From NCBI RefSeq assembly GCF_013315695.1, contig NZ_CP054353.1: 64,000 bases of DNA; one strand, written 5' to 3'. Positions within the stretch are counted from its first letter, which is position 1; each line of letters begins with the position of its first letter. Of the stretch, positions 14,570 to 52,212 are shown in pieces. The DNA is from Escherichia coli (lineage in GTDB: Bacteria > Pseudomonadota > Gammaproteobacteria > Enterobacterales > Enterobacteriaceae). The notes beneath the pieces were generated by a model. The model was not told the DNA's origin. It did not search any database and saw nothing but the letters and a program-made list of their open reading frames with translations. Both the position numbers and the translations under genes were made by a program.

Positions 14570-15684
14570 TGCCGGAGAGTGCAATGCAAAACTGGATAAA
14601 GGCCGCAGTTATCGCCCTAAGCCTGGCGCTGCCCGGCGTGGCGCTGGCGCAATCGCTGGAGTCGCTGGTCAACGTACAAGGCGTGCGTGAAAACCAACTG
14701 GTCGGCTACAGCCTGGTGGTCGGCCTCGACGGTACTGGCGATAAAAACCAGGTCAAATTCACCAACCAGACCATCACCAATATGCTGCGCCAGTTTGGCG
14801 TGCAATTGCCGAATAAAATCGACCCGAAGGTGAAAAATGTCGCGGCGGTGGCAGTGAGCGCCACGCTGCCACCGATGTACTCACGCGGGCAGACTATTGA
14901 TGTCACCGTCTCGTCGATTGGTGATGCCAAAAGTATTCGTGGCGGCACCTTGCTGCTGACCCAACTGCACGGCGCAGATGGCGAGGTTTATGCCCTGGCA
15001 CAGGGCAGCGTGGTGGTGGGCGGGATGAACGCCACCGGGGCCAGCGGTTCCAGTGTGACGGTTAATACGCCAACTGCCGGGTTAATTCCCAACGGCGCGA
15101 CGGTGGAGCGCGAGATCCCCAGCGATTTTCAGATGGGCGACACCATCACGCTCAACCTGAAACGCCCGTCGTTTAAAGACGCCAACAACATTGCGGCGGC
15201 GATCAACGCCTCGTTTGGCGGCATTGCCACGGCGCAGAGTTCCACCAACGTCACCGTGCGTGCGCCCACCAGCCCCGGCGCGCGGGTGGCATTTATGTCG
15301 CAACTGGATGATGTACAGGTGCAGGCAGAGAAAATCCGCGCCCGCGTGGTGTTTAACTCGCGTACCGGCACGGTGGTGATGGGCGATGGCGTTGCGCTGC
15401 ATGCGGCGGCGGTGTCGCACGGCAGTTTGACCGTCTCGATTAACGAAACCAGCAACGTCAGCCAGCCGAATGCCTTTGCAGGCGGGCGCACGGCGGTAAC
15501 GCCGCAGAGCAATATCGCGGTGAATCATGCGCGCCCGGGCGTGGTGAGTTTGCCGGAGTCGAGCAGCCTGAAAACGCTGGTCAATGCGTTGAACAGTTTG
15601 GGCGCGACGCCGGACGACATTATGTCGATTTTACAGGCGCTGCATGAGGCGGGCGCGCTGGATGCCGACCTGGAGGTGATCTGA
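14569..15684 (+). CDS. lfgI: Flagellar P-ring protein FlgI family (LfgI)
   Basis: 371 aa with signal peptide (alternative start MQNWIK at 14584). Confidence 0.9.
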
Positions 15685-29796: not shown

Positions 29797-30090
29797 ATGC
29801 ATCGAATTCTCGCTGAAAAATCGGTCAATATCACTGAGTTACGTAAAAACCCAGCTAAATACTTTATTGATCAACCGGTTGCGGTTCTTTCTAATAATCG
29901 CCCCGCAGGATATCTCTTAAGTGCCAGCGCATTTGAAGCGTTAATGGACATGCTTGCTGAACAAGAGGAGAAAAAACTGGTTAAGGCGCGCTTCCGTCCG
30001 AGTGCCGCAAGATTAGAGGAAATTACACGCCGCGCTGAACAATATCTTAATGATATGACGGATGATGATTTCAATGACTTTAAGGAATAA
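29797..30090 (+). CDS. yafN: Antitoxin YafN (Phd/YefM-type)
   Basis: 97 aa; position downstream of dinB and upstream of the yafO-like gene. Confidence 0.85.
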   Translation: MHRILAEKSVNITELRKNPAKYFIDQPVAVLSNNRPAGYLLSASAFEALMDMLAEQEEKKLVKARFRPSAARLEEITRRAEQYLNDMTDDDFNDFKE

Positions 30091-30092
30091 GG

Positions 30093-30491
30093 ATGCGGGT
30101 ATTCAAAACAAAACTTATTCGCCTGCAACTTACAGCAGAGGAACTTGATGCGTTAACGGCGGATTTTATTTCCTATAAGCGTGACGGTGTTTTGCCAGAT
30201 ATATTTGGTCGCGATGCACTCTACGACGACTCGTTTACCTGGCCATTAATCAAATTTGAGCGAGTTGCTCATATTCATCTGGCAAATGTGAATAATCCAT
30301 TTCCGCCACAGTTGCGCCAATTCAGCAGAACGAATGACGAAGCGCATTTGGTATATTGTCAGGGTGCGTTTGATGAGCAAGCATGGTTGCTCATTGCCAT
30401 TCTGAAACCTGAACCTCATAAACTGGCTCGAGATAACAACCAAATGCATAAAATTGGGAAAATGGCAGAAGCGTTTCGCATGCGTTTTTGA
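30093..30491 (+). CDS. yafO: Ribosome-dependent mRNA interferase toxin YafO
   Basis: 132 aa; begins 2 nt after the yafN stop in the dinB-yafN-yafO-yafP arrangement. Confidence 0.85.
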   Translation: MRVFKTKLIRLQLTAEELDALTADFISYKRDGVLPDIFGRDALYDDSFTWPLIKFERVAHIHLANVNNPFPPQLRQFSRTNDEAHLVYCQGAFDEQAWLLIAILKPEPHKLARDNNQMHKIGKMAEAFRMRF

Positions 30492-30953: not shown

Positions 30954-31131
30954 ATCCAGCTTGCAAAGAAAATAACGCCCGCCTAGTATGTGCGCGTTTT
31001 CTTATTCCACAAACTGCAAGGAGGTAAATCATGACAAATCCTTTATCAATGACTCTTTCCAGACCTTTCCAGGATTAATTCTTTTTTTCTTGCCCTGGAT
31101 TCGTCTGCCATTTCCTGATTTTTATTCATAA

Positions 31132-32280
31132 ATGGAATGGTACATGGGCAAATATATTCGTCCCTTATCTGATGCGGTACTTACCATCGCATCTGATGAC
31201 CTGTGGATCGAGAGTTCAGCGATCCAACAATTACACACCACGGCAAATTTACCCGACATGCAACGCGTAGTAGGGATGCCAGATTTACACCCCGGACGCG
31301 GCTATCCGATTGGCGCAGCGTTCTTCTCCGTAGGCCGTTTTTACCCGGCACTGGTCGGCAATGATATCGGCTGCGGTATGGCGCTATGGCAAACAGATAT
31401 TTTCGCGCGCAAATACAACGCCGATAAGTTTGAAAAGCGATTATCTGCGCTGGATGACGTTGCTGAAGAAAGCTGGCTGGAGGAAAACCTGCCGTCAGCG
31501 TTAGCACAGCATCCGTGGCGCAGCTCGCTGGGTTCCATCGGTGGCGGAAACCACTTCGCAGAACTGCAACAAGTTGATCAAATTATCGACGCTGAACTGT
31601 TTGCACTGACAGGTCTGGATGCGCAGCATCTGCAACTGCTGGTTCATAGCGGCTCGCGGGGTTTGGGCCAGTCTATTTTACAGCGGCATATTGCCTCGTT
31701 TTCGCATCATGGTTTGCCTGAAGGCAGTGACGACGCGCTAAGTTATATTGTGGAACATGATGATGCGCTGGCGTTTGCGCGTATTAATCGCCAGATGATC
31801 GCTTTGCGCATAATGCAACAGGTTAAGGCCACCGGAAGTCCTGTTCTGGATGTGGCGCATAACTTTGTTAGCGCCTGTCAAATCGGCGATCAACAGGGCT
31901 GGTTGCATCGTAAAGGTGCCACGCCGGATGACAACGGTCTGGTGATTATTCCCGGTTCACGCGGTGATTACTCCTGGCTGGTTAAACCTGTTGCGAACGA
32001 AAAAACGCTCCACTCGCTGGCGCATGGGGCAGGGCGTAAATGGGGGCGCACCGAGTGTAAAGGGCGTCTGGCAGCGAAATACACGGCGACGCAACTCTCG
32101 CGTACTGAACTTGGCAGTCGGGTAATTTGTCGCGATAAACAACTCATCTTTGAAGAAGCGCCACAAGCCTATAAATCGGCTGAAAGCGTGGTGCAATGTC
32201 TGGTGCAGGCCGGTTTAATTATTCCTGTCGCGCGGCTGCGTCCGGTGCTAACGCTCAAAAACAATGGAGAAAAAGGATGA
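31132..32280 (+). CDS. rtcB2: RtcB-family RNA ligase paralog (RtcB2; intact form of K-12 pseudogene ykfJ)
   Basis: 382 aa; RtcB metal/GTP-site motifs visible ([35 protein letters not shown]); possible start at 31144. Confidence 0.75.
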
Positions 32281-32891
32281 TCTTGCTACAACTCTCCTCA
32301 GCTCAGGGGCCGGAAGAATGTTGCCTGGCAGTGAAAAAGGCGCTGGACAGGTTGATTAAAGAAGCTACCCGACAAGACGTCGCGGTAACGGTGCTGGAAA
32401 CAGAAACGGGTCGCTACTCTGACACACTGCGTTCGGCGCTGATTTCTCTGGATGGCGATAACGCATGGGCTCTAAGCGAAAGCTGGTGTGGCACTATCCA
32501 GTGGATTTGTCCGAGTCCGTATCGGCCTCATCATGGGCGCAAAAACTGGTTTCTGGGCATTGGGCGTTTTACCGCTGATGAGCAGGAACAATCCGACGCG
32601 ATCCGTTATGAGACGCTGCGTTCGTCGGGGCCGGGCGGTCAACATGTCAATAATACCGACTCGGCGGTACGCGCCACGCATCTGGCATCCGGTATTAGCG
32701 TGAAGGTTCAGTCAGAGCGCAGTCAGCATGCTAACAAACGGCTGGCGCGATTACTGATTGCCTGGAAGCTGGAACAACAGCAACAGGAAAATAGCGCGGC
32801 GCTGAAATCGCAGCGGCGAATGTTCCATCACCAGATTGAACGTGGCAACCCGAGACGGACATTTACAGGGATGGCTTTTATCGAAGGATAA
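32277..32891 (+). CDS. prfH: Peptide chain release factor homolog PrfH
   Basis: 204 aa from ATG at 32277 (ATGA overlap with the rtcB2 stop); GGQ motif SGPGGQHVN. Confidence 0.8.
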
Positions 32892-32947
32892 TGAAGGATG
32901 AAACTGCCGGAAGGCGATTAAACGCCATCCGGCAGCAAATCAAATAA

Positions 32948-34405
32948 TTACTTCGCCGGAATTTCTTTCAGCAGTTCAGTCAGCAGTGTCCAGTAATGAC
33001 CTACGCTTTCGATATGAACTTGCTCATCCGGAGAGTGTGGACCGGTAATGGTTGGCCCGATAGAAACCATGTCCATTTCCGGATACGGTTTTTTGAACAG
33101 ACCACATTCCAGGCCCGCGTGAATAATCTGGATGTTCGGCGTCTTGTTGAACAGGCGCTGATAGGTTTCACGTACCAGATGCATCACCGGAGAATTAGCG
33201 TCCGGCTGCCAGCCAGGATATGCGCCTTTCGCTTCGGTTTTCGCGCCAGCCAGTTTACCCAGAGAATCCAGCATGCTCACCACGTAGTCTTTACCGCTGT
33301 CGATCAGAGAACGGATCAGGCAGTGAATTTCTACGTTATTGTCAGTCATGGTCACCACACCCACGTTCAGGGAGGTTTCGACCACGCCTTTTGCCACGTC
33401 GGAGTTGCGGATCACACCGTTCGGGGTGGCGTTCAGCAGACGAATAAAGGTATCGCGAGATTTCGCAATCAGGGCAGCTTTATCGTTCGCAACAGAGTCC
33501 AGCAGCAATGCCAGATTTTTCTCTTTCTCTGCCAGCTCGTTTTTCAGGATCTCCTGATAGGTATTCACCAGAGATTTCAGTGCGTCGACTTTATCAGCTG
33601 CGACAGCAATCGTCGCAAAGGCTTCACGCGGGATGGCGTTACGCAGTGTGCCACCGTTGAAATCGATAAGGCGCAGGTCCAGCTCTTCCGCATGACCCGC
33701 CAGGAAGCGCACCAGCAGTTTGTTGGCATTACCCAGGCCAACGTGGATTTCACCGCCGGAGTGACCGCCTTTCAGACCTTTTAAGGTTAACTTGAAGGTT
33801 TCAAAACCAGCTGGAACCGCTTCACGATCTAAATGCAGGTTGGAGGTGAAGTCGATACCCCCCGCACAACCCATGTAGATTTCACCTTCTTCTTCGGAGT
33901 CGGTGTTAATCAGAATATCAGCCTGCAACCAGTTGCTCTGTAAGCCAAAAGCACCGTCCATACCGGCTTCTTCGGTCATGGTCAGCAGCACTTCCAGCGG
34001 GCCGTGAACCACGTTTTCGTCAGCCAGAACCGCCAGTGCAGAGGCCATACCAATGCCGTTATCCGCACCCAGCGTGGTGCCGCGCGCTTTAACCCATTCG
34101 CCATCAATATAAGGCTGGATAGGATCTTTCGTGAAGTCATGCACGGTGTCGTTATTTTTCTGCGGCACCATATCGAGGTGGGCCTGCAAGACGACCGGTT
34201 TACGATTTTCCATACCTGCGGTGGCAGGTTTACGAATCAGGATATTACCCACCTGATCGCGTTCGACATGGAAACCTTTCTCTTTTGCCCAACCAACAAT
34301 GTATTCAGCGAGTTGCTCTTCATGATAGGACGGGTGAGGAATAGAACAGATTTTGGCAAAAATATCCCACAGCGGCTGTGGAGATAATTGAGACAGTTCA
34401 GACAC
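32948..34405 (-). CDS. pepD: Cytosol nonspecific dipeptidase (aminoacyl-histidine dipeptidase)
   Basis: 485 aa M20-family metallopeptidase; conserved backbone gene. Confidence 0.95.
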   Translation of the reverse strand: MSELSQLSPQPLWDIFAKICSIPHPSYHEEQLAEYIVGWAKEKGFHVERDQVGNILIRKPATAGMENRKPVVLQAHLDMVPQKNNDTVHDFTKDPIQPYIDGEWVKARGTTLGADNGIGMASALAVLADENVVHGPLEVLLTMTEEAGMDGAFGLQSNWLQADILINTDSEEEGEIYMGCAGGIDFTSNLHLDREAVPAGFETFKLTLKGLKGGHSGGEIHVGLGNANKLLVRFLAGHAEELDLRLIDFNGGTLRNAIPREAFATIAVAADKVDALKSLVNTYQEILKNELAEKEKNLALLLDSVANDKAALIAKSRDTFIRLLNATPNGVIRNSDVAKGVVETSLNVGVVTMTDNNVEIHCLIRSLIDSGKDYVVSMLDSLGKLAGAKTEAKGAYPGWQPDANSPVMHLVRETYQRLFNKTPNIQIIHAGLECGLFKKPYPEMDMVSIGPTITGPHSPDEQVHIESVGHYWTLLTELLKEIPAK

Positions 34406-40783: not shown

Positions 40784-40859
40784 GCCGATATAGCTCAGTT
40801 GGTAGAGCAGCGCATTCGTAATGCGAAGGTCGTAGGTTCGACTCCTATTATCGGCACCA
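40784..40859 (+). tRNA. thrW: tRNA-Thr (anticodon CGU), thrW-like
   Basis: 76-nt GCCGATATAGCTCAGTTGGTAGAGCAGCGCATTCGTAATGCGAAGGTCGTAGGTTCGACTCCTATTATCGGCACCA; cloverleaf arms, CGT anticodon, encoded CCA. Confidence 0.9.
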
Positions 40860-41024
40860 TTCAAACATCTCCCCAAGTCTACTAAAGTCTTTCAAAACCC
40901 CTTATAATCCGCGTATTAAAGCCCCGTTCGTCTTTTGACGTCTACTAAAGTCCCTCAAAATCTACGGTCAGATGGGGGTACTTATGGGGGTATTTGCTGT
41001 TCGGTTTAGTGGAGGTACCCCCAA

Positions 41025-42239
41025 GTGAAACTCAATGCCCGTCAAATAGACACAGCCAAGCCAAAAGAGAAGGCTTACAAGCTGGCCGATGGTGGCGGTT
41101 TGTATCTCTTGGTAAAACCTAATGGAGGTAAATACTGGCGACTTAAATATCGTGTAGCTGGTAAAGAGAAGCTATTGGCACTAGGTGTTTATCCTGAGGT
41201 TACTCTAGCCGATGCTCGGGCAAAACGTGAAGATGCGAAAAGAGGTATCGCTGGTGGTATCGAACCGATGGAAGCGAAACGAGAGGAAAAGATTGCCCGG
41301 GAAACGCAGTTAAACAACACCTTCAAAGATATTGCCCTTGAGTGGCACAGCAGCAAATTAAAAAAATGGTCTGCTGGTTATGCTTCAGACATCCTCGAAG
41401 CCTTCAACAAAGATGTGTTCCCTTACATTGGCAAAAAACCCATCGCCGAAATCAAACCACTTGAACTTCTGAATGTGCTGCGTCGCATCGAGGGGCGCGG
41501 TGCTACAGAAAAAGCCAAAAAAGTGAGGCAACGGTGCGGGGAAGTTTTCCGCTATGCAATAGTCACTGGTCGCGCAGAGTATAACCCTGCACCAGACCTT
41601 ACTAGCGCGATGCAAGGCCATGAATCTAATCATTACCCTTTCCTTACAGCCAAAGAATTACCTGATTTTTTCAAGGCATTGTCCAGTTACTCAGGAAGCG
41701 CATTGGTTGTTATGGCGGCTCGTCTACTGATTATCACCGGCTTGCGGACTGGCGAACTACGTGGCGCATTATGGGATGAAATTGATTTCAACAAGGCTAT
41801 CTGGGAGATACCCGCTTCACGTATGAAAATGCGGCGGCCTCATATTGTGCCATTGTCTGAGCAGGCTCTTTCGCTTATTGGGAAGATTAGAGAAATAACA
41901 GGCAATTACCCTCTTATGTTTCCCGGGCGCAATGATCCAAGGAAAACAATGAGCGAGGCCAGCATAAACCAAGTGTTTAAGCGCATTGGCTACGCTGGAC
42001 GTGTAACTGGTCATGGGTTCCGGCACACTATGAGTACGATTTTGCATGAGCAGGGCTATAACACTGCGTGGATAGAAACGCAGCTCGCTCACGTTGATAA
42101 GAACTCAATTCGTGGCACATACAACCATGCGCAATATCTGGATGGAAGGCGGGAGATGCTTCAATGGTATGCCGACTATATGGATTCTCTCGAGCATGGC
42201 GGAAATGTGGTGCATATGGTGTTTGAAAAACACGCATGA
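41025..42239 (+). CDS. int: Tyrosine site-specific integrase (P4-type)
   Basis: 404 aa, GTG start with GGAGG SD; N-terminal arm-binding-type region (GGGLYLLVKPNGGKYWRLKYR) and C-terminal catalytic R-H-R-Y region (HGFRHT ... RGTYNHAQY). Confidence 0.85.
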   Translation: MKLNARQIDTAKPKEKAYKLADGGGLYLLVKPNGGKYWRLKYRVAGKEKLLALGVYPEVTLADARAKREDAKRGIAGGIEPMEAKREEKIARETQLNNTFKDIALEWHSSKLKKWSAGYASDILEAFNKDVFPYIGKKPIAEIKPLELLNVLRRIEGRGATEKAKKVRQRCGEVFRYAIVTGRAEYNPAPDLTSAMQGHESNHYPFLTAKELPDFFKALSSYSGSALVVMAARLLIITGLRTGELRGALWDEIDFNKAIWEIPASRMKMRRPHIVPLSEQALSLIGKIREITGNYPLMFPGRNDPRKTMSEASINQVFKRIGYAGRVTGHGFRHTMSTILHEQGYNTAWIETQLAHVDKNSIRGTYNHAQYLDGRREMLQWYADYMDSLEHGGNVVHMVFEKHA

Positions 42240-42890
42240 AACAACTGGACAAGTATACAGAGGTTTACTAAAGTATAAGGGAGTAGATTGATAAAAACTC
42301 ACAGAGGATTGCTATTTAACAGTTAGCCATGGAGAAGGGCAATCGCTCTTTTAACAACGAAGATGGAATCTTCTACGCAGCTGAAAAGCTGGATGCTCTT
42401 TAACAGCCTTTGGTGCTTTTCTGATGCAGGAAAGAATAGGGATACATGCACCTTTACAATGCATGTAATGATTCATCCATGAGGCTGCGGAGCGCTGACA
42501 AAGCGCAATTGCTCTTTAACATTGATGTGGGCGGGATGGTTCGTCCCGCAGTGACCGATAGATTTCTATCGGGAAACATACAATGATTCAAATATGAATC
42601 TACGGCGCTGACAAAGCGCAATTGCTCTCTTGCCTGCCCACCATGCCCTGAAAAAGGGCGTTCTTTAAAACTACTGGATGTCACGCCTAATAGCGTGATC
42701 CTGCCGAAATGCAGGGTAGCTCTACCCTTGTGGAGCAAACAAACCAAAACAATCTGACTATCTTTTATAAAAGACCGCAATATGTTTTTCATATTGTGGT
42801 CTTTGGCGTATTCGACATTTGACGCAAATAAAACTCTCGCCATTCGTTGCAGGAGGGGGTTATTGCGTCATTAGTACAGGATATTAATAA

Positions 42891-43094
42891 ATGGCTAATT
42901 ACAATTCATTAATTCGTCTCTCTGAAGTTCAAAGGCGAACTGGTTATAGCAAAGCATGGATTTATCGTCTTATTAGTCAGGGGAGGTTCCCTAAACAGGT
43001 AAAAATTGGAAGTCGGGCAATTGCTTTTGTTGAGTCTGAAATAGATGAATGGATTGAGAAGTGTATATTAGAATCTAGAGACGAGGTGGCCTGA
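42891..43094 (+). CDS. alpA: AlpA-family phage transcriptional regulator / excisionase-like protein
   Basis: 67 aa; AlpA signature RLSEVQRRTGYSKAWIYRLISQGRFPKQVKIGSRAIAFVESEIDEWI. Confidence 0.8.
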   Translation: MANYNSLIRLSEVQRRTGYSKAWIYRLISQGRFPKQVKIGSRAIAFVESEIDEWIEKCILESRDEVA

Positions 43095-43525
43095 TGGAAA
43101 AGAAAAACCGCCCATTACAGGCGGCTAATTCAGATATTCGTGTATCTGATGTTACGCCCCTTACAAAATCCCTTCAAGCACCAAAGCGCACACCGAAAAA
43201 GCATCGTGCCAGAGTCTATATGCTGCGTACTGGTATAGAGGGATGGACAGAAAATGACATTCTTCGCTACTGCCGTCTGTCTTCTGGTCGTAACTATGCA
43301 ACAGAGTTAGAACGCCAGCTTGGAATCACTCTGGAGCGTATCGACGAAAAGAATCCTGATGGTATCGGAACACACCTTCGCTACCGTTTCTCCTGCCGTG
43401 GTGATGTTCTGAAAGTGATCACTCATGTTAACCATCTTGCGAACATAAATGATCACAACGGACTTTCTCAGCAGGAAATTGCCGACATTCTGAAACTCTA
43501 CCCGGACGCGTTTAACGCCGCCTAA
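43094..43525 (+). CDS. Hypothetical basic protein
   Basis: 143 aa; begins at the alpA stop; no recognisable motif. Confidence 0.4.
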   Translation: MEKKNRPLQAANSDIRVSDVTPLTKSLQAPKRTPKKHRARVYMLRTGIEGWTENDILRYCRLSSGRNYATELERQLGITLERIDEKNPDGIGTHLRYRFSCRGDVLKVITHVNHLANINDHNGLSQQEIADILKLYPDAFNAA

Positions 43526-43537
43526 CGGAGACTGAAA

Positions 43538-44371
43538 ATGAACATCGAAAAAAGCAGATTAATTTCTGAGGCCGCCCCTCATCTGAACGCCTCTCTGGGC
43601 ACAATTAACGGTAATGAATTTGCCGCAATTGTCCCGGTTATTCCTGGTCATATCGGTGGGCGTGAAACCAATATTGTTAGCGCAAAAGCGTTACACAAAG
43701 CGTTGGGCGTGGGAAAAGACTTCTCTACATGGATCACTGATCGCATCTCTGAATATGACTTCACCATTGGGCACGATTACTCAGTCCATAAAACAATTTC
43801 CCCAAATTTGGGGAAAAGCCCGAATGGCGCGGCTTACAGCAAGATAAAGCACTCTGGCAGACCCGGTAAAGACTATCTGTTAAGTGTCGGAATGGCGAAA
43901 GAACTGGCAATGATCGAACGCAATGATCAGGGTCGCGCTATCCGCCGTTATTTCATCCAGTGCGAGGAAGAATTACAGCGTAGCGTTCCTGAAATCGCCG
44001 CCCGCTATCGTCGCCAGCTAAAAGCCCGTCTCAGTGCCGCAAACAACTTTAAGCCAATGTGCGATGCGCTGAATATGGCCCGTGCCGAGATGGGTAAAAC
44101 GACGCAGCAACACCACTACACAAACGAGAGCAATATGATTTCTCGTATCGTTCTTGGTGGGCTAACTGCTAAGCAGTGGGCGCGGATAAATGGCTATTCT
44201 GGCGAACCTCGCGACCATATGAACGCAGAACAGCTTGAGCACCTCTCATATCTCGAAAGCACCAATATCACGTTAATTGATATGGGCATGGAATATGAGC
44301 AGCGCAAAGGAGAACTCACCCGCCTGTCGCAACGCTGGCTCGCCAAGCGTCTGGAGGCGGTCCATGTTTAA
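43538..44371 (+). CDS. Phage antirepressor-like protein
   Basis: 277 aa; N-terminal SAKALHKALGV...FSTWITDRI block resembles the antirepressor N-terminal domain. Confidence 0.5.
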   Translation: MNIEKSRLISEAAPHLNASLGTINGNEFAAIVPVIPGHIGGRETNIVSAKALHKALGVGKDFSTWITDRISEYDFTIGHDYSVHKTISPNLGKSPNGAAYSKIKHSGRPGKDYLLSVGMAKELAMIERNDQGRAIRRYFIQCEEELQRSVPEIAARYRRQLKARLSAANNFKPMCDALNMARAEMGKTTQQHHYTNESNMISRIVLGGLTAKQWARINGYSGEPRDHMNAEQLEHLSYLESTNITLIDMGMEYEQRKGELTRLSQRWLAKRLEAVHV

Positions 44372-44546
44372 GCCGACAGGAACACCACAACCTCAAAAAC
44401 GCTACAAAGATGCCCACGGAGCACTCGTTACTGTCGAAAGCGTGTCTCACAACCGAGTGACGTTTTATCGCGACGGGTATCAATCGCCATGCGTACAACC
44501 GCTGGCGCGCTTCATGAAGGAGTTCGCGGAGGTTAACAAATGCTAA
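44364..44546 (+). CDS. Hypothetical small protein
   Basis: 60 aa from ATG at 44364 (ATGTTTAA overlap with the preceding stop). Confidence 0.3.
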   Translation: MFKPTGTPQPQKRYKDAHGALVTVESVSHNRVTFYRDGYQSPCVQPLARFMKEFAEVNKC

Positions 44547-45607
44547 CCGTCCAGAAGAAGATATTTTCACTGGCTGGTATGTCACCAAAATCCAGCAATA
44601 TGACAGCAAAGTCTGGCATTAATACAGCAGATACAAGCAAAGTTTATCATTTTCTGGTGGTAGGAGCGGATGCCTTAACTATGTCAGAAATTACGGTCGA
44701 TGGTGTTAGCGTTGAGAAGGTCAGCGGCTGCGCCAGAGAATTTCTGGTCGTAGATGGCTTTCTCTGCTCGCGTAGTGACTCCACAAAAACCTTCGTCCAT
44801 ACGCGCGACGTTAACGAAATGAGCGCGATGTATTGTGCATCTGGTGCTTCCAATACTGAGTTTTCGGAGTCCATAAAAAAGAGCTTGCCGTTATGCGGCA
44901 ACACGGTTTATGGTTATAAGGCACCTCATAAAACGGGTGCCGGGATTGGCGTCCTGAAAATTCTGAAGGCGACATATGACGCGCCGAGCGTCTTTTTTTA
45001 TGTCGTAGGTCTGACTCACCCATTTTTTGGGCGTTGGTGTATAATCCAGCGCCTTTGTCAATCAATGGTGGCTCAGGCGGGGGCTTCTTCGGAAGCGCCG
45101 GTATCCTTCAGAGCCGGTTACGCCAACCCTGTCTGGGCTACCACCAGCGAAATTGGCGTTTCCGGTGGTAGCGTAACCTGCTATCTGAAGGAGGCTGCCA
45201 CATGCTGGCTACTACCCCTACCCAAAAACCGCAATTTATCTGGATTATCGCCGCAGTTCGCCGCGATTGCCCGACAATTACCGCCAAAATTCATCATATT
45301 GCTGCCGAGTCTGAACGCGATGCTCGCCGTTCTCTGGTGCGCGATCACGTCTGCTTTTTTGCTGGTCGTATCCGCATGGAGGTGGCACATGATTAAAACC
45401 TACGATGTGCATATGGATCCCCTCGAACGCACAAGCCAGATCATCACACTGACAGAAGTGATTAACGACATTCTGGTGAGCAACTCTCCCTCACGAGACG
45501 AAAGGCTGAAGGCGTTACTCGCGATATTGGATCTCGCCGTTCGTGACGTTCATTTCCTGCTGGAAGGTGGCGAAATGCCAGGAAAAACGGGGGCAACCAA
45601 TGAATAA
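44540..45607 (+). CDS. Hypothetical ORF, possibly over-called or chimeric
   Basis: 355-aa open frame with heterogeneous composition; the only long open frame over 44.5-45.6 kb; its C-terminal part could be an independent small gene. Confidence 0.25.
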
Positions 45608-45794
45608 CTCAATTAATACCCCTCGCCTTACGTCCGCACTTCAATTAATCGAGCAAGCAGCGGCTGTCCTGGTTGCTGTCAGTCTTTCGGCTGAAGAAAT
45701 GGACGCTGCTGATGTCGTGGATGCGATTAAAGCGTGCTCATCTTTGGTTAACGATGCCCGTGCCGAGCTGGTAATTCTTGGGGGTGAAAAATGA
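45600..45794 (+). CDS. Hypothetical small protein
   Basis: 64 aa from ATG at 45600. Confidence 0.3.
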   Translation: MNNSINTPRLTSALQLIEQAAAVLVAVSLSAEEMDAADVVDAIKACSSLVNDARAELVILGGEK

Positions 45795-46054
45795 ATATCA
45801 ACTTAATTTATCGTCATCCGTGTGAGCTGGAAATTGAATCATTGCTGGGGCGTGAAGAGCCATATCCAGACTCATTCACTCCCGCAGATTGCGCGACTGA
45901 ACGGCTTACCAGAGCGCGCACAGGTCTGGTTCATGTGATGAATGAGATTGTTCCCTCGGTGGGAGGGGAACAGGCGACAGTAATCAATAGCTGGCTACAA
46001 AAAGTTACCTCCCTGATAGATATCGGTTTAATCGATGTGGAGAGTGCGAAATGA
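45791..46054 (+). CDS. Hypothetical small protein
   Basis: 87 aa; overlaps neighbours by 4 nt on the same strand. Confidence 0.35.
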   Translation: MNINLIYRHPCELEIESLLGREEPYPDSFTPADCATERLTRARTGLVHVMNEIVPSVGGEQATVINSWLQKVTSLIDIGLIDVESAK

Positions 46055-46272
46055 CCAACATCCAGCTCATTGAAGCGCAATGTCGCATCGAACAGGTTCA
46101 GACTGTTTTAGGGTTCTGGCTTGAAGGGGCCAGCCCCAGCAACAGAGACAAGTTAATGATTGGCGCGGTTATGTCACTGCTCAATGGCGTACCAGAAGCT
46201 ATTCAGGAAGCGGACGAATTGTTGGGCAAATATGAGTTACAGAATCATTCAGGCGAGGCGAAACATGAATAA
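46051..46272 (+). CDS. Hypothetical small protein
   Basis: 73 aa; 4-nt overlap with the upstream gene. Confidence 0.35.
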   Translation: MTNIQLIEAQCRIEQVQTVLGFWLEGASPSNRDKLMIGAVMSLLNGVPEAIQEADELLGKYELQNHSGEAKHE

Positions 46273-46867
46273 TTTCTTAACTTTCCATGCAGAAGCAACG
46301 CCTGACGGCGTAAACATCATGTACCGCAGCAACGATGGCATGACAGAACGCGTTGAGGCCGTCTCATATATTGATGCCGTAAATCGTCTGGATGCCGGGG
46401 ATTATGACGATAAACCAGATGAAGGTATGTCAATACATCTCGCTATTGCCGATGGCGGCAACCAGGGATATTTCGATTACACATCACAGCATAACGTCAT
46501 TATGTGGAGATGGCTGATCGCAACAGTATTCATGCTGGAAATGAGAGAGGAAAACGGCACTGTCAGCATCATTGATGATACTGGCAATCCTTCCGAAGTG
46601 GCTGTTTATTCCAACGGCATCGTCGCCATGCCGCTGTATCCAGTAGCAGAGCGCCTCGCTATGGCAAACAACATTGAGGGCGCGATGATAGAACGTTTTG
46701 GCATCGAGTCTGGCACAGAACGCGCCATCATTTTCTACAGAGCCATGATGGATGTGGAACAAGGAGCACTGACTCCATTTGGTCGTGAAACGCTTGCTGA
46801 ACTTCACAACAGCTTTATAGCTGAACTGAATGAAAACGGCATGCCAGCGGAACCAGTGACGCACTGA
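46265..46867 (+). CDS. Hypothetical protein
   Basis: 200 aa from ATG at 46265 (MNNFLTF). Confidence 0.4.
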   Translation: MNNFLTFHAEATPDGVNIMYRSNDGMTERVEAVSYIDAVNRLDAGDYDDKPDEGMSIHLAIADGGNQGYFDYTSQHNVIMWRWLIATVFMLEMREENGTVSIIDDTGNPSEVAVYSNGIVAMPLYPVAERLAMANNIEGAMIERFGIESGTERAIIFYRAMMDVEQGALTPFGRETLAELHNSFIAELNENGMPAEPVTH

Positions 46868-46877
46868 GGATGGAGCC

Positions 46878-47219
46878 ATGATTACTAAAAATTTCCGACT
46901 GAATGCGCTGGCAAATAAGTATGCGTCGGCACTGTATAACCACATTACCTCCACCAGCGGCGGGGACTATTTCATGGTTGATGCGGACGGCGAGGCCGTA
47001 CGTGTGGAAATCGTCAATGGAGTAAAAGGCGTTCGCAGCCTGATCGATAGCTACACACTGGCAGCCATGAAAGTGTTCTACCCGCAGTGGGAAACCGTGG
47101 GGATCGAGCTTCTTGAGCGTTGCGTCACTAAGGACGGATTGACTGACGTCGGGCGTGAGATATGGCAAAGCATGGTTAATGACATGGGCGCAACTGTAGC
47201 GGGAGGTTCTCATGCGTGA
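46878..47219 (+). CDS. Hypothetical protein
   Basis: 113 aa; same-strand operon member. Confidence 0.35.
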   Translation: MITKNFRLNALANKYASALYNHITSTSGGDYFMVDADGEAVRVEIVNGVKGVRSLIDSYTLAAMKVFYPQWETVGIELLERCVTKDGLTDVGREIWQSMVNDMGATVAGGSHA

Positions 47220-47583
47220 AAATGCAGAAATGGCGCTTAGCTCCGCAATCGGAGAGCAGGTGGCAAAGATTGCTGGTGCTGTGTGGATTCATAACCTTCA
47301 TTCTACTGGTGAAGAGAAAATGGCAATTCAGACGCCAGAGGGACGCACCATTACTACATCTCTGAAGCCGTCAGATGTTTGTGATCTGATTTGCGCATTC
47401 ATGTACCCAGCAATGAGGACTGTCCACGGCGATAAGTGGAAACTTGCGACAACCGCTGAATTTGATATGTGGCTAAACAATGATGGCATGCTGACTGATT
47501 ACGGAATAACCAAGTGGCAGATGCTGGTTAGCCATATCGCAAACGCTATAGACCACGTGGGGTACGGTGATGCGAAACATTGA
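47212..47583 (+). CDS. Hypothetical protein
   Basis: 123 aa; overlaps the primase start. Confidence 0.35.
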   Translation: MRENAEMALSSAIGEQVAKIAGAVWIHNLHSTGEEKMAIQTPEGRTITTSLKPSDVCDLICAFMYPAMRTVHGDKWKLATTAEFDMWLNNDGMLTDYGITKWQMLVSHIANAIDHVGYGDAKH

Positions 47584-50326
47584 TCTTATCCGTCAGGTTA
47601 TCAGTGCGTCTGAAAACAACTGGCCTCATGTGCTGGGCTGCCTGAACATAAATGTCCCTGACTCTCCGCGCCGTCATGCTCCCTGCCCTGCATGTGGGGG
47701 CAAAGATCGATTCCGGTTCGATGACAACGGGCGCGGTAGCTTCATCTGTAATCAGTGCGGCGCTGGTGATGGGCTGGATTTAATTAAACGCGTAAATAAC
47801 TGCGACACAACAGAGGCGGCGCTTCTTGCCGCTGATGTTCTGGGTATTGATTACCGGACAACGGAAACACCAGAAGCCACCAGCCAGAAACGGGAACAAC
47901 TGGAAACCGAGCGCCAGCGACGCGAACAGGAGCGCCTGAAAAGGGCAGAGAAGGACGAACAACAAAGACGGGATACGTTTTCCCGTCAGTTTGATGACAT
48001 GCGCAGAAAGGCTGTAAACGGCAAATCTGATTATCTGGTTGCGAAAGGGGTAGGTGATTTTACATTCCCCGTGTTGCCCGATGGATCTCTGTTGCTGGCG
48101 CTGGTGGATAAATCCGGCGCAGTCACAGCAGCACAGACTATTACATCACATGGTGAAAAAAGACTCCTGACAGGTTCAGCAAAGCGGGGGGCATATCACG
48201 CCATAAACGCGCCAGAAACAACACAGAGCATCTTAATCGCAGAAGGGCTGGCAACGGCATTATCTGCCCATTTAATTCGTCCAGAGGCGCTGACAGTGGC
48301 GGCGATTGATGCCGGGAACCTGTTATATGTCGCCCAGGTACTGCGGGATAAATTTCCTTCAGCACAAATCATCATTGCTGCGGATAACGACCACAGCGAA
48401 GGAAGACAAAACACGGGGAGAATAGCAGCAGAAAAAGCAGCTTTATCTGTTTCTGGATGGGTGGCATTACCCCCGACAGATCACAAAGCAGACTGGAATG
48501 ATTACCACCAAAAACACGGCATTAAATGCGCCACAGAAGCGTTCAATAAGTCAATGTACCAACCACAGGGTAATGGCGTGAAACATGAGCCACAGACCAT
48601 TGAGGGAAGCGATTTTAAGGTTATGGATACCGACCCACTGAAACCAAGAATAGAAAGCCGCGAGGATGGTATTTATTGGGTATCTCCGAGAGCTGACAGC
48701 CAGAGTGGAGAAATCATCAATAACGAAAGCTGGTTATGTTCTCCGTTAAGCGTTATCGGTACTGGCAGAGACGATAAAGACCAGTATCTCATTCTTCGCT
48801 GGCTGTCGTTTGGTTCTGAAACGCCGACAACCGCTGCCATTCCACTGGCTGATATTGGTGAACGTGAAGGATGGCGCACACTTAAAGCTGGTGGGGTAAA
48901 TGTCACGACCAAAAGCAGCCTCAGAGCAATACTGGCAGACTGGCTACAACGCAGTGGCTCTCGTGAATTGTGGCGTGTTGCTCATGCCACTGGCTGGCAA
49001 TGCGGAGCGTACATCATGCCTGATGGGGAAATCATCGGAACACCTGAAAATCCTGTGCTGTTCAGCGGGAGAAGCTCAGCCGCAGCCGGATATACCGTCT
49101 CAGGGAGCGCGAAAAGCTGGCGTGATAACGTGGCGCGTCTGGCCTTTGGTAACTATTCAATGATGACCGGGATCGGCGCAGCACTGGCAGCGCCATTGAT
49201 TGGGCTGGTGGGCGCTGACGGGTTCGGCATTCATTTCTATGAGCAGTCGAGCGCAGGTAAGACCACCACGGCAAACGTGGCGAGCAGCTTATACGGCAAC
49301 CCTGATTTACTGCGGCTGACGTGGTACGGAACCGCGCTGGGGCTGGCAAATGAGGCCGCCGCCCACAATGACGGACTAATGCCGCTTGATGAAGTTGGTC
49401 AGGGCGCTGATCCTGTCAGCGTTTCACAGTCTGCCTATGCGTTATTTAACGGTGTAGGGAAACTGCAAGGCGCTAAAGATGGTGGAAACCGGGATCTAAA
49501 ACGCTGGCGTACAGTGGCAATCAGCACCGGAGAAATGGATTTAGAAACATTTATCGCTACTTCCGGGCGAAAAACCAAAGCCGGGCAACTGGTGCGACTG
49601 CTGAATATTCCGTTGAGTAAAGCAGTACGCTTTCACGATTACCAGAACGGAAAACAGCACGCAGACGCACTGAAAGACGCTTACCAGCATCACCACGGCG
49701 CGTCCGGGCGTGAGTGGATTAAATGGCTGGCAGACCACCAGCAACAGGCTATTAAAACCGTTCGTGACTGCGAAAGCAGATGGAGAAGCCTGATCCCATC
49801 CGATTATGGTGAGCAGGTTCACCGTGTAGCCGCGCGATTTGCCATTCTGGAGGCCGCATTGTTGTTAGGCGAGGTTGTAACAGGCTGGGATGCTCAGACA
49901 TGCCGTGATGCGATACAGCACAGCTATAACGCATGGTTGCGCGAGTTCGGCACAGGTAACAAAGAGCATCAGCAGATTATTGAACAAACGGAGGCATTTC
50001 TTAATGCCTATGGGCTTAGCCGTTTTGCACCATTTCCATACAGCCCGGCAGATTTGCCCATCAAAGATTTAGCCGGATACCGTCAGCGTGGAGAACATGA
50101 CGAAAGCCCAATGATTTTCTACACATTCCCGGCCACATTTGAAAAGGAGATCGCATGTGGTTTCAACGCAAAACAGTTTGCTGAAGTGTTGAAAAAAGCC
50201 GGGATGCTAACCCCACCAAACAGCGGTCGTGGATACCAAAGAAAATCACCACGTATTCAGGGACGACAAATAAACGTTTATGTACTCAATTACCAGCCAG
50301 GAGATTATAACTCATCTGAAGAATGA
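47567..50326 (+). CDS. Satellite-type DNA primase/helicase (zinc-finger + TOPRIM + D5-like NTPase)
   Basis: 919 aa; N-terminal CPACGG...CNQCG zinc finger, TOPRIM-like region (ILIAEGLATALS), Walker A SSAGKTT in the C-terminal half. Confidence 0.8.
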   Translation: MMRNIDLIRQVISASENNWPHVLGCLNINVPDSPRRHAPCPACGGKDRFRFDDNGRGSFICNQCGAGDGLDLIKRVNNCDTTEAALLAADVLGIDYRTTETPEATSQKREQLETERQRREQERLKRAEKDEQQRRDTFSRQFDDMRRKAVNGKSDYLVAKGVGDFTFPVLPDGSLLLALVDKSGAVTAAQTITSHGEKRLLTGSAKRGAYHAINAPETTQSILIAEGLATALSAHLIRPEALTVAAIDAGNLLYVAQVLRDKFPSAQIIIAADNDHSEGRQNTGRIAAEKAALSVSGWVALPPTDHKADWNDYHQKHGIKCATEAFNKSMYQPQGNGVKHEPQTIEGSDFKVMDTDPLKPRIESREDGIYWVSPRADSQSGEIINNESWLCSPLSVIGTGRDDKDQYLILRWLSFGSETPTTAAIPLADIGEREGWRTLKAGGVNVTTKSSLRAILADWLQRSGSRELWRVAHATGWQCGAYIMPDGEIIGTPENPVLFSGRSSAAAGYTVSGSAKSWRDNVARLAFGNYSMMTGIGAALAAPLIGLVGADGFGIHFYEQSSAGKTTTANVASSLYGNPDLLRLTWYGTALGLANEAAAHNDGLMPLDEVGQGADPVSVSQSAYALFNGVGKLQGAKDGGNRDLKRWRTVAISTGEMDLETFIATSGRKTKAGQLVRLLNIPLSKAVRFHDYQNGKQHADALKDAYQHHHGASGREWIKWLADHQQQAIKTVRDCESRWRSLIPSDYGEQVHRVAARFAILEAALLLGEVVTGWDAQTCRDAIQHSYNAWLREFGTGNKEHQQIIEQTEAFLNAYGLSRFAPFPYSPADLPIKDLAGYRQRGEHDESPMIFYTFPATFEKEIACGFNAKQFAEVLKKAGMLTPPNSGRGYQRKSPRIQGRQINVYVLNYQPGDYNSSEE

Positions 50327-50350
50327 GCTTCTTCATGTGCGTAGAAAAGG

Positions 50351-50456
50351 TGTTGGTTCAGTTGGTTCAATTTGTAAAGAGTATTGTTTTATAAGGATTT
50401 TATTCTTTTTATTGAACCAACACTGAACCAACAACACGGTATTTTGAACCAACACA
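50351..50456. promoter_or_regulatory. Candidate replication origin: inverted clusters of TGAACCAAC iterons flanking an AT-rich spacer
   Basis: GTTGGTTCAGTTGGTTCAA (50352-50370) then ~42 bp AT-rich, then TGAACCAACACTGAACCAACAA and TGAACCAACACA (50413-50456); begins 25 bp after the primase stop. Confidence 0.5.
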
Positions 50457-50774
50457 ATGTGACTGAATTGATGCGCACAACACCTGGCTGGCATCAGAGA
50501 GTGTTTTACGAGACTTTCGTAAAATCCTGTGTACAAGGGCGTGACGTTTTTGAAAGTGAGCACTACGAAATTTTCGTAGTTCAGAAAACAGCCTCTGAGA
50601 AGTTGTTATGCCTGTTCAGCAAACCATCCGCATAGCTGATCGCGAATCAAATTACCAATGGAGCCAGAAGCAAGGGCAGAACTGAAAAGCGCCTGCCGTG
50701 AAGAGTAATGCGACACCATAAATATAGTTTTTAGAGTCCATAAAAAACCTGTCAAAACCTGACACACAGAACGA

Positions 50775-50806
50775 TGCCACCAGCTACTGAGCGGTGGCAT
50801 TTTTTT
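50775..50806 (+). terminator. Rho-independent terminator
   Basis: Hairpin TGCCACC-AGCTACTGAGC-GGTGGCA followed by TTTTTTT. Confidence 0.6.
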
Positions 50807-50901
50807 GTGCTATTTGTTTCATATTTTGCAATTACGATGATGAATATTGCGATTTGTGAAACTATAATAACTGTTGTTTTATACAGTTCTAAGGGGGCGT
50901 T

Positions 50902-51063
50902 ATGGCTATTTCAGTAAAGCCGGTATTGATAAGTGAGAAGCAAATGGAAGCGATAAAGAAAATTCAGGAAGAGCAGCGTAAAAAATCAGGAATTGGAGTA
51001 GCGCCAACTCTGCATGAAATTGCACGAGGGTTAATAGATAAGGCGCTGGCAGGCTGTATGTGA
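50902..51063 (+). CDS. Small ORF (53 aa) not in the ORF track; possible small DNA-binding protein
   Basis: ATG at 50902 with AAGGGGG SD 7 nt upstream; charged helical composition. Confidence 0.35.
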   Translation: MAISVKPVLISEKQMEAIKKIQEEQRKKSGIGVAPTLHEIARGLIDKALAGCM

Positions 51064-51079
51064 AAATGGATGGCATCGC

Positions 51080-51541
51080 ATGGAACTAAAATTTATTGAT
51101 AACCCTGTGCGATTACAGGCCTTTCTTAACGAGCCAGGCAATACCGAAAATATTGTTGAGCCGGGGCACACGTACTACATCAAGCCTGATGCGGTATATC
51201 TCGGCATCTACGAAGGATTAGTGCTGGCTGGCGTTCATGAAGTGCGTAACTTCTGGCATAGCGTTGTTGAATGCCATGCGGTGTACGACCCCGGATTCCG
51301 TGGTGAATATGCACTGCAAGGACATCGATTATTCTGCAAATGGCTTCTCGAAAACTCACCATTCCTTAACAGCATTACCATGGTTCCTGACACCACGAAA
51401 TACGGACGGGCAATTATCCGTTTGCTTGGCGCTACCCGTGTTGGTCATCTTGATGATGCTTATATCAGATGTGGTAAACCCGTCGGCGTAACGCTTTATC
51501 AGTTAACTCGGCAACAATATAAGGAATTCAGCGAATGTTAA
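51080..51541 (+). CDS. Hypothetical protein (candidate virion-associated protein)
   Basis: 153 aa; first of three tightly coupled same-strand genes. Confidence 0.4.
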   Translation: MELKFIDNPVRLQAFLNEPGNTENIVEPGHTYYIKPDAVYLGIYEGLVLAGVHEVRNFWHSVVECHAVYDPGFRGEYALQGHRLFCKWLLENSPFLNSITMVPDTTKYGRAIIRLLGATRVGHLDDAYIRCGKPVGVTLYQLTRQQYKEFSEC

Positions 51542-52212
51542 TTACCCATATAGCTTATAAACATCTCAATCGTGCCGTATACGAAAAAGGCGGTGATGGT
51601 GGTGCCTCTAAAGCTCAGGCGAAGGCCCAGCAGCAGGCAATTGATTTGCAGCGCGAGCAGTGGAATACGGTGATGAATAATCTCAAGCCGTATGCAGAAG
51701 TCGGATTGCCTGCTTTACAACAACTACAAGGACTGATGACTCTGGAAGGGCAGAATAAAGCCGCGAATGATTTCTTTGGTTCTGGTTTATATAAAACACA
51801 GGCAGATCAGGCCCGTTATCAGAACCTTGTCTCAGCAGAAGCTACCGGGGGGCTTGGCTCAACAGCTACCAGTAACCAGTTATCTTCCATTGCGCCCATG
51901 CTTTATAACAATTGGCTCAGTGGGCAAATGCAAAATTATGGAAACCTGCTAAATGTCGGGATGAATGCGGCATCAGGGCAGGCAACAGCAGGGCAAAACT
52001 ACGCCAATAATACCGGACAACTCTTGCAGGGGCTTGGCGCTATTCGTGCAGGTCAGGCGCAGCAGCCATCCAGTCTTGCGCGTGGTATTGGTGGGGCGGC
52101 ATCAGGCGCTTTAGCGGGTGCGCAACTTGGTTCCGTTGTTCCGGGTATAGGTAATGTCGCCGGGGCTATTGGTGGTGGGCTTATTGGTCTTGTTGGGGGG
52201 CTTGGATTCTAA
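51535..52212 (+). CDS. Hypothetical protein with Gly-rich hydrophobic C-terminus (candidate phage ejection/internal protein)
   Basis: 225 aa; Gln/Asn-rich middle, C-terminal GxxxG-rich tail (GIGNVAGAIGGGLIGLVGGLGF). Confidence 0.4.
   Translation: MLITHIAYKHLNRAVYEKGGDGGASKAQAKAQQQAIDLQREQWNTVMNNLKPYAEVGLPALQQLQGLMTLEGQNKAANDFFGSGLYKTQADQARYQNLVSAEATGGLGSTATSNQLSSIAPMLYNNWLSGQMQNYGNLLNVGMNAASGQATAGQNYANNTGQLLQGLGAIRAGQAQQPSSLARGIGGAASGALAGAQLGSVVPGIGNVAGAIGGGLIGLVGGLGF

Follow-up and report, generated by a model that had tools for sequence, protein, structure and literature searches.

Does the rtcB2-prfH gene pair carried by a 64,000-nt stretch of the Escherichia coli chromosome (contig NZ_CP054353.1; hereafter the window) still make up a working ribosome rescue-and-repair module, and what might switch such an operon on? 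The two genes had been read from the bare sequence as an intact, translationally coupled pair, in contrast to decayed remnants in K-12, and they stand in the gene order lafU, dinB, yafN, yafO, yafP, rtcB2, prfH, pepD (opposite strand), gpt, frsA, crl and phoE. We consider the segment 31144..32891 very probably to be a functional allele of the RtcB2-PrfH operon already known from E. coli, which rescues and repairs ribosomes. Neither the gene pair nor its role is new, the role having been shown in 2022. Ahead of rtcB2 lies a short leader open reading frame (ORF), and its part in controlling the operon is the more tentative subject of this report.

The rtcB2-prfH pair and its proteins

An uninterrupted + strand ORF occupies 31132..32280, according to both the ORF list and the sequence, and a second + strand ORF runs from ATG 32277 to TAA 32891. 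They meet at AAAAGG-ATGA-TC, where the prfH ATG (32277-32279) and the rtcB2 TGA (32278-32280) overlap by 4 nt, so the proposed ATGA overlap is present at 32277-32280. The two genes also overlap or abut (-22 to +1 nt) in 73 of 73 related loci with both genes readable. We assign the first gene as rtcB2 (31144..32280, + strand), encoding a PrfH-coupled RtcB-family 3'-phosphate/5'-OH RNA ligase of 378 amino acids (aa), on the basis of NCBIfam and Pfam matches, catalytic residues and the ratio of nonsynonymous to synonymous divergence (dN/dS). The second is prfH (32277..32891, + strand), encoding the 204-aa release-factor homologue PrfH, as supported by TIGR03072, alignment with PDB entry 7SA4, Pfam and contact residues. 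NCBIfam E-values of 1e-192 and 5e-98 argue that this is not a chance pair of ORFs, and the pair is intact as claimed.

The start of rtcB2 had earlier been taken as ATG 31132, and this had to be corrected. Among 80 related rtcB2 loci, drawn from a one-genome-per-species collection and representing Escherichia, Citrobacter, Klebsiella, Kosakonia, Proteus, Providencia, Morganella, Pseudomonas, Cupriavidus, Achromobacter, Rhodoferax, Neisseria and others, that upstream ATG is not conserved, and we rejected it. The gene probably starts at ATG 31144 (MGKYIRPL, 378 aa), four codons inside the ORF that opens at 31132, because the Prokaryotic Genome Annotation Pipeline places the start there in the identical record NZ_LR898874.1, the NCBIfam NF007153 alignment begins at residue 5 of the 382-aa ORF, ATGGGC is the start in 79 of the 80 loci, and the published number of the catalytic residue, H294, agrees with it.

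RtcB2 scored 639.9 bits against NF007153 (cut-off 407) and 621.6 against TIGR03073 'release_rtcB' (cut-off 271.8), and matched Pfam PF01139 with an E-value of 3e-59. The metal and guanosine triphosphate site motifs expected of an RtcB are all there: D74 and C77 (GNDIGCG), H137 (GGGNHF), H168 (VHSGSRG), H239 (AHN) and H294 (HGAGR). In alignment they fall on the metal and guanosine monophosphate (GMP) sites of Pyrococcus horikoshii RtcB, as well as on the motifs of Thermus thermophilus RtcB, and the six residues are invariant in 13 RtcB2 orthologues, down to 60% identity.

PrfH scored 326.6 bits against TIGR03072 (cut-off 166.65) and fell below the cut-offs of the models for prfB (92.8 against 370), prfA (81.9 against 423) and ArfB (30.3 against 100). 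Its Pfam content is restricted to the RF-1 (GGQ) domain at residues 106-194, with no PCRF domain or RF domain 1, and the predicted GGQ motif was located at residues 120-122. Residues 1-204 align with the 204-residue chain 8 of PDB 7SA4, which is EcPrfH of strain ATCC 25922 on the damaged ribosome, with 202 of 204 residues identical (E-value 4e-136); the two differences are K20 (R there) and N126 (K there). The residues with ribosome-binding roles described in PMC9304027 are present, namely R83, H86, R88 and R189 (cleaved A1493 with its 3'-phosphate), K89 and N90 (h18/S12), R52, S53, R181 and H184 (C1914) and H85 (C1054), together with the catalytic Q122. Like the 7SA4 chain, the protein ends at 204 aa and has no conserved C-terminal tail. 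Thus, comparison at full length with a characterised protein held end to end for PrfH, while RtcB2 was set against distant solved RtcBs. Truncation or loss of catalytic residues was looked for in both proteins and neither was seen, which leaves the reading of an intact pair standing.

Role, distribution and divergence of the allele

Both proteins lie above curated equivalog cut-offs, and the ribosome rescue and repair role attributed to them is published on biochemical, structural and in vivo evidence. The operon that prfH forms with the gene upstream of it was defined by Baranov et al. (2006), who inferred translational coupling. Ribosomes cut between A1493 and G1494 are the only ones from which EcPrfH frees peptide, and in the work that solved the EcPrfH-ribosome complex no PrfH density was seen on intact ribosomes (Tian et al. 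2022 PNAS, PMC9304027). The same study showed that EcRtcB2 re-ligates cut 30S subunits and not cleaved tRNAs, and that the pair reverses toxin-induced growth arrest, for which Q122 and H294 are needed. ATCC 25922 is protected from colicin E3 (Maviza et al. 2022, PMC9223846), the operon gives no protection against tRNA-targeting colicins (PMC9304027, PMC9223846), and PrfH speeds the repair of translating ribosomes (RNA Biol 2026, PMC13166195). The pair is a well-characterised counter to colicin E3 and CdiA-CT ribotoxins. A PADLOC search for anti-phage defence systems returned no match for RtcB2 or PrfH.

The window operon shares with that of ATCC 25922 the yafP-pepD site, the gene order, the ATGA overlap, H294, Q122 and membership of the tail-less PrfH subfamily, and differs in K20 and N126 of PrfH and in the length of RtcB2. 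Since its proteins are nearly identical to those of ATCC 25922, we assign the mechanism worked out there to the window pair with high confidence, as a prediction from sequence. A cut in 16S rRNA between A1493 and G1494 by colicin E3-type or CdiA-CT ribotoxins would leave the 70S ribosome stalled. PrfH would then occupy the A site, recognising the cleaved, 3'-phosphorylated A1493, and its GGQ motif would release the peptide so that the ribosome can be dismantled, after which RtcB2 would seal the 16S rRNA in the 30S subunit through a His294-GMP intermediate. Translation of the two genes would be coupled by the ATGA overlap. The intact pair predicts better resistance of this strain to such toxins than of K-12-type strains.

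Two related systems help to delimit this role. The ligase of E. coli RtcB1-RtcA (rtcBA) shares its fold and chemistry with RtcB2 (PF01139; His-GMP, 3'-phosphate/5'-OH sealing), but RtcB1 is reported to be about 28% identical, repairs tRNAs and not colicin-cut 30S subunits, is paired with RtcA and lies at another locus. CgPrfH of Capnocytophaga gingivalis (PDB 9MOR/9MQ4) aligns with residues 3-201 of the window PrfH (E-value 1e-39), but has 231 aa and a conserved C-terminal tail that allows rescue of intact non-stop ribosomes, whereas the window PrfH has 204 aa and no tail. This difference bears on whether the main role could instead be general relief of ribosomes stalled by antibiotics or stress, or an ArmZ-like regulatory function, and not ribotoxin defence. 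In P. aeruginosa, stalling caused by azithromycin is reportedly relieved by PA5470 (PrfH), and the RtcB-like ArmZ has gained a role as anti-repressor of MexZ. The conserved leader described below also implies induction by translation stress in general, and 4-azaleucine is reported to induce ykfJ of E. coli K-12 (PMC3516279). We nevertheless regard such a main role as unlikely, given that EcPrfH acts only on cleaved ribosomes, that EcRtcB2 mends 30S subunits and not tRNAs, and that tRNA-targeting colicins are unaffected. Additionally, the window PrfH, aligned end to end with 7SA4, belongs to the tail-less subfamily, unlike CgPrfH, and ArmZ anti-repression acts through MexZ, while no MexZ-like gene adjoins this operon.

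A 1951-bp query covering the locus matched strain MSB1_4I (NZ_LR898874.1) with 100% identity and most other E. coli with about 96%. From the latter the window also differs by having no repeat insert before rtcB2 and a Ser codon in the leader, both discussed below. Full-length loci (at least 80% of the query) were found in 2709 of 5426 complete E. coli genomes, and the remaining genomes mostly matched 48% or 39% of it. K-12-type genomes are without 31351..32365 of the window, which bears out the contrast drawn earlier with decayed K-12 remnants, and a second type is also without 32561..32725. The deletion of about 1 kb in K-12 and O157 was described by Baranov et al. (2006). The intact state is thus common, being found in about half of E. 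coli, and represents a known presence/absence polymorphism. Separately, 15 of 5438 matching places were on plasmid-labelled records.

Several observations weigh against a fully functional allele. N126, inside GGQHVN-K-T, stands in place of the K of the characterised protein. Between RtcB2 and other E. coli alleles there are 18-26 residue differences. No RtcB2 sequence was found among the solved structures in PDB, and structural roles in RtcB2 were for this reason inferred from distant RtcBs. With regard to the first, the residue after GGQHVN is K in 46 PrfH orthologues, T in 25 and R in 2, so that N126 is unique among 74 sequences, and 11 E. coli records, IAI39 and CE10 among them, contain the exact N126 60-mer. 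With K, T or R at this site in orthologues, N126 is probably a neutral lineage polymorphism rather than damage, and we rejected K126N as a loss-of-function change as unlikely. With regard to the second, RtcB2 is about 93-95% identical to other E. coli alleles and has 378 aa against 379, with a one-codon C-terminal deletion. Against three other E. coli alleles, dN/dS was about 0.15 for rtcB2, 0.07-0.10 for prfH and 0.01 for pepD. This indicates that rtcB2 and prfH are under purifying selection, with values above pepD but far from neutral, and pseudogene-like relaxed evolution of the pair was rejected on these values of 0.07-0.15.

Synonymous divergence (dS) from other E. coli was higher for rtcB2-prfH (0.15-0.30) than for the adjacent pepD (32948-34405; 0.095), which points to an allele that is old or has recombined. 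IAI39 and CE10 have it as well. Database proteins of 522 aa and 583 aa carry both PF01139 and PF00472 and look like fusions of RtcB2 with PrfH, although read-through or misassembly at the ATGA overlap may have produced them artefactually.

The leader ORF and its RNA structure

The 190-nt spacer between yafP and rtcB2 contains a leader ORF of 15 codons (31031..31078, + strand; MTNPLSMTLSRPFQD followed by a stop) that is homologous to P. aeruginosa PA5471.1. It consists of AAGGAGG, 6 nt, ATG 31031 and a reading frame closed by TAA 31076-31078, 65 nt before rtcB2. Its Shine-Dalgarno sequence (AAGGAGG, 31018-31024) falls in the segment S0 (CTGCAAGGAGG, 31014..31024, + strand; 80 of 80 loci), which also provides the 5' arm of helix H0 below. 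The lead to P. aeruginosa came from a RefSeq note on one pseudogene, about mexXY inducibility.

An ORF of 12-20 codons with a strong Shine-Dalgarno sequence precedes rtcB2 in 80 of 80 loci, usually ending 60-130 nt upstream, with AAGGAGG or AGGAG 5-8 nt ahead of its ATG in every case. In 72 leaders, hereafter the canonical set, the peptide has the core (T/S)-L-C-(R/G). P. aeruginosa PA7 is among them, its leader MIQFSTLCRLRLA being PA5471.1. Of the 72, 68 have the codons CTT TGC (A/G)G(A/G); Leu and Cys are never encoded by a synonymous codon, even in G+C-rich genomes, and the core is always in frame, Cys being codon 8 to 10. The core CTTTGC(A/G)G and a complementary ...CTGCC are common to PA7 and more than 30 other Pseudomonas loci. 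In E. coli the leader 60-mer is present in 5355 of 5426 genomes, including those that carry the deletion. Nine loci (Achromobacter, Rhodoferax, Hydrogenophaga, P. fuscovaginae, Neisseria) have another leader peptide, e.g. ...TSLWAGSAVAG... or ...QQQTSHAAGRV, and no match to the covariance model described below.

Three helices were predicted on the + strand. H0 pairs CTGCAAGGAG (31014-23) with the Leu-Cys codons (31053-62) and appeared in the minimum free energy (MFE) structure of all ten species folded. H1 (31060..31107) pairs CAGAC 31060-31064, in codons 10-12, with GTCTG 31103-31107, and encloses an inner helix of CCAGG 31069-31073 with CCTGG 31094-31098. H2 (31108..31140) pairs CCATTTCC (31108-31115) with GGAATGG (31134-31140) around a U-rich loop, and GGAATGG itself resembles a Shine-Dalgarno sequence and lies 4-10 nt ahead of the rtcB2 ATG. 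H0 and H1 are in competition for a single GCAG. RNAalifold predicted H1 and H2 on 13 Enterobacterales sequences, and an independent MAFFT/RNAalifold run on 12 non-Enterobacterales sequences predicted H1 again, extended to 14 pairs.

In an alignment of 66 distinct sequences, fitted to a covariance model, which inflates the pairing and covariation counts, H1 was paired in 98.5% of cells, with compensatory changes at 3 of 5 pairs (AU 47/GC 13/GU 6; GC 46/AU 19; CG 36/UG 22/UA 3), and H2 in 84.5%, with CG<->UA and AU<->UA exchanges. Sliding the 3' partners cut pairing to at most 49%. The model R1, built from the 13-Enterobacterales alignment, gave a significant match (E <0.001) in 70 of 81 sources, one per locus and one in the 64-kb window. 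All of them were upstream of rtcB2, with 67 ending at the rtcB2 start, and R1 did not span the long PA7 spacer. The fold of the whole region (30954-31160) had a z-score of only -1.22, and single-sequence folding alone was consequently not taken as evidence. A long-range helix between the two CAUG start regions was dismissed, CAUG being self-complementary, and an extension of H1 into the H2 arm, considered by eye, was dropped because it is not conserved in E. coli.

These elements suggest how the leader might act. While the RNA is at rest, both ribosome-binding sites would be kept structured by H0 and the H2 region. A ribosome lingering on the leader start or early codons would occupy S0 and prevent H0, and the freed Cys-Arg codons (10-12) could then pair downstream as H1, loosening the structure over the rtcB2 start. 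In silico, masking the leader initiation region raised predicted rtcB2-start accessibility by more than 0.1 in 24 of 62 sequences, while masking at the Cys codon did so in 4 of 62 and at the last codon in 3 of 62. In P. aeruginosa, deletion of leader nt 16-22 (7 nt) makes expression constitutive, and an amber codon at codon 3 also raises ArmZ. By our own mapping on PA7, the deleted nucleotides would be ACCCTTT, an arm of H0. E3-cleaved ribosomes are reported to pile up at start codons (2026 paper, PMC13166195). The deletion, this accumulation and the masking result fit the model of S0, H0 and H1, and we infer that the leader makes expression of the operon depend on ribosome behaviour on the leader, which probably senses stalled ribosomes. 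The 4-azaleucine response reported for ykfJ is a hint from the literature of such induction.

The P. aeruginosa operon provides the closest comparison. PA5471.1 - armZ (PA5471) - PA5470 (prfH) likewise combines an RtcB-like gene and prfH with a short leader ORF, and the armZ-PA5470 operon is under the 13-codon leader PA5471.1, which responds to ribosome stalling. The peptides themselves differ (MIQFSTLCRLRLA in PA7, MTNPLSMTLCRPFQD in E. coli), and what they have in common is the CTTTGCAGG core with its downstream complement. The distance from leader to armZ is about 210 nt, with extra hairpins, against a spacer of 65 nt in E. coli. Control in P. aeruginosa has been described as transcription attenuation, whereas in E. 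coli no terminator can be recognised and the ribosome-binding site of rtcB2 lies within the conserved pairing. The E. coli leader probably senses the same thing as PA5471.1 but may differ from it in output, since a terminator is absent and the conserved helices involve the rtcB2 ribosome-binding site. Short upstream ORFs that, when occupied by ribosomes, cause RNA further downstream to re-pair and so induce a gene acting against translation damage are familiar from ermC-type leaders and toiL-topAI. The leader described here has no sequence relation to them, its sensing helix uses its own Shine-Dalgarno region, and its evidence is comparative.

Taken jointly, the comparisons raise the possibility, to which we give somewhat less than even credence, that one conserved ribosome-sensing leader, composed of a 12-20-codon ORF and a three-helix RNA switch, turns on RtcB2-PrfH operons of Gamma- and Betaproteobacteria, including that of E. 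coli, with PA5471.1 as a single derived example, and that a leader mutation of the window at 31059 may de-repress the operon. If this is true, the repair module would be induced by the very damaged or stalled ribosomes that RtcB2-PrfH mends. A family-wide sensor of stalled ribosomes would also join two separate literatures and make detection of decoding-centre damage testable.

A number of points count against such a switch. The predicted effect on accessibility is modest, and in many species there is none. Both arms of H0 are nearly invariant, which places this helix beyond a covariation test, and H1 and H2 are adjacent and could coexist. A terminator scan of 31079-31143 showed no canonical intrinsic terminator between leader and rtcB2. 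Finally, the window itself departs from the canonical leader. Its Cys codon has become TCC (Ser, 31058-31060) by a G-to-C change at 31059, where the 71 other canonical leaders have TGC. The change also introduces a mismatch into H0 and lowers the stability of the H0 region from -14.1 to -7.4 kcal/mol (about 6.7 weaker), so that regulation here may differ from the norm.

It is also conceivable that the leader ORF is untranslated and that the conserved element is purely RNA structure or a promoter/untranslated region, the peptide being a by-product. Conservation is indeed at the nucleotide level, as CTT TGC shows no synonymous variants even in G+C-rich Pseudomonas, the Arg/Gly interchange keeps G-G, and the N-terminal part of the peptide is not conserved. 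Two searchable sets of ribosome-profiling and small-ORF supplements contained neither the leader peptide nor the gene names tried. We find this improbable, however, in view of a strong Shine-Dalgarno sequence at the correct spacing and an ATG in 80 of 80 loci, of an ORF length kept at 12-20 codons, and of a core that stays in frame though its distance from the ATG shifts by whole codons. Moreover, regulation by the P. aeruginosa homologue depends on leader translation.

The exact leader 60-mer of the window was found in 4 of 5363 E. coli records, and its H0 region is the weakest of the 72 (median -12.75 kcal/mol). The mutation is predicted from folding to alter, and perhaps raise, basal expression; a rise is the likelier outcome of a weaker H0 because the deletion of nt 16-22 in P. 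aeruginosa is constitutive. That the pair, though its sequence is intact, has been compromised or dysregulated in this lineage by private changes (K126N by the GGQ loop, unique among PrfH sequences, the RtcB2 substitutions and one-codon C-terminal deletion, and the rare Cys-to-Ser leader allele with its weak H0) is very improbable, because the position after GGQHVN is naturally variable, the N126 allele is common to 11 genomes, no catalytic or contact residue is altered, dN/dS is well under 1, and a weaker H0 more plausibly raises than abolishes expression.

Upstream of the leader, a promoter-like site for a transcript of leader, rtcB2 and prfH (30961..30989, + strand) was inferred from cross-genus conservation, with a -35 element TTGCAA (30961-30966), a 17-nt spacer and a -10 element TAGTAT (30984-30989), followed by GTGCGCG. 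The pattern TTGCxx-17-TA(G/C/T)(T/G)AT and then GCGC stands at an equal distance from the leader in many genera. A consensus sigma-70 scan of the intergenic region gave no site near rtcB2, with site counts at shuffle level, and the promoter-like site has 8 of 12 consensus matches, below the 9/12 threshold of that scan. The G+C-rich stretch after the -10 element (GTGCGCG, ACGCGCG or GCGCGCC) is conserved in many genera and looks like the discriminator of a promoter under stringent control.

The loop of H2 holds a repeat-like insert in most other E. coli, full length (about 127 nt) in K-12-like strains and shortened to about 57 nt in O111 and O17, whereas the window has an empty site (31125-31128), like other genera. 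From the ERIC1R and ERIC2 primer sequences, we take the insert to be an enterobacterial repetitive intergenic consensus (ERIC) element.

With respect to earlier work, RefSeq annotates no feature under the leader, and Rfam has no family for it, the sole match in the region being STnc350 on the opposite strand (20.7 bits against a cut-off of 60). In the E. coli RtcB2-PrfH literature searched there was no mention of a 'leader', native promoter or upstream element. Targeted literature searches for the leader returned Pseudomonas work only, with the primary 2009 paper on PA5471.1 outside their coverage. A 2025 review of MexXY describes leader-peptide control of ArmZ as apparently unique to MexXY, and a 2015 screen listed the spacer at rank 98 in a table of riboswitch-like windows, with no comment. 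Thus, we found no earlier description of the leader in E. coli, of its family-wide conservation or of the structural model, the leader itself being a homologue of the known PA5471.1.

Other features of the window

Between the convergent prfH and pepD, a stable inverted repeat at 32904..32935 (strand unassigned) folds to -25.1 kcal/mol. The terminator scan missed it because it has no T-run, and any role for it is putative. On the other side of the operon, E. coli O111:NM has yafP directly after dinB and is without the yafN-yafO toxin-antitoxin pair (window 29797-30491).

Upstream of dinB, about 1-28619 holds a complete-looking Flag-2 lateral flagellar cluster (fliF ... lafA ... fliA, motA, lafU), with a flgI homologue (about 14827-15678) whose annotation is that of a truncated pseudogene. 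K-12 keeps only a remnant of this cluster. Downstream, about 40784-54340 contains an integrase and a phage- or satellite-like element of about 12 kb beside a tRNA-Thr gene (about 40784-40859), ending at an IS1. The content of the element includes a TOPRIM/DUF927 primase, an Ash-family gene, an antirepressor and a frameshifted DNA-ejection gene. Further on, at about 57143-60180, a second IS1 truncates the fimbrial usher gene ecpC of the ecp operon.

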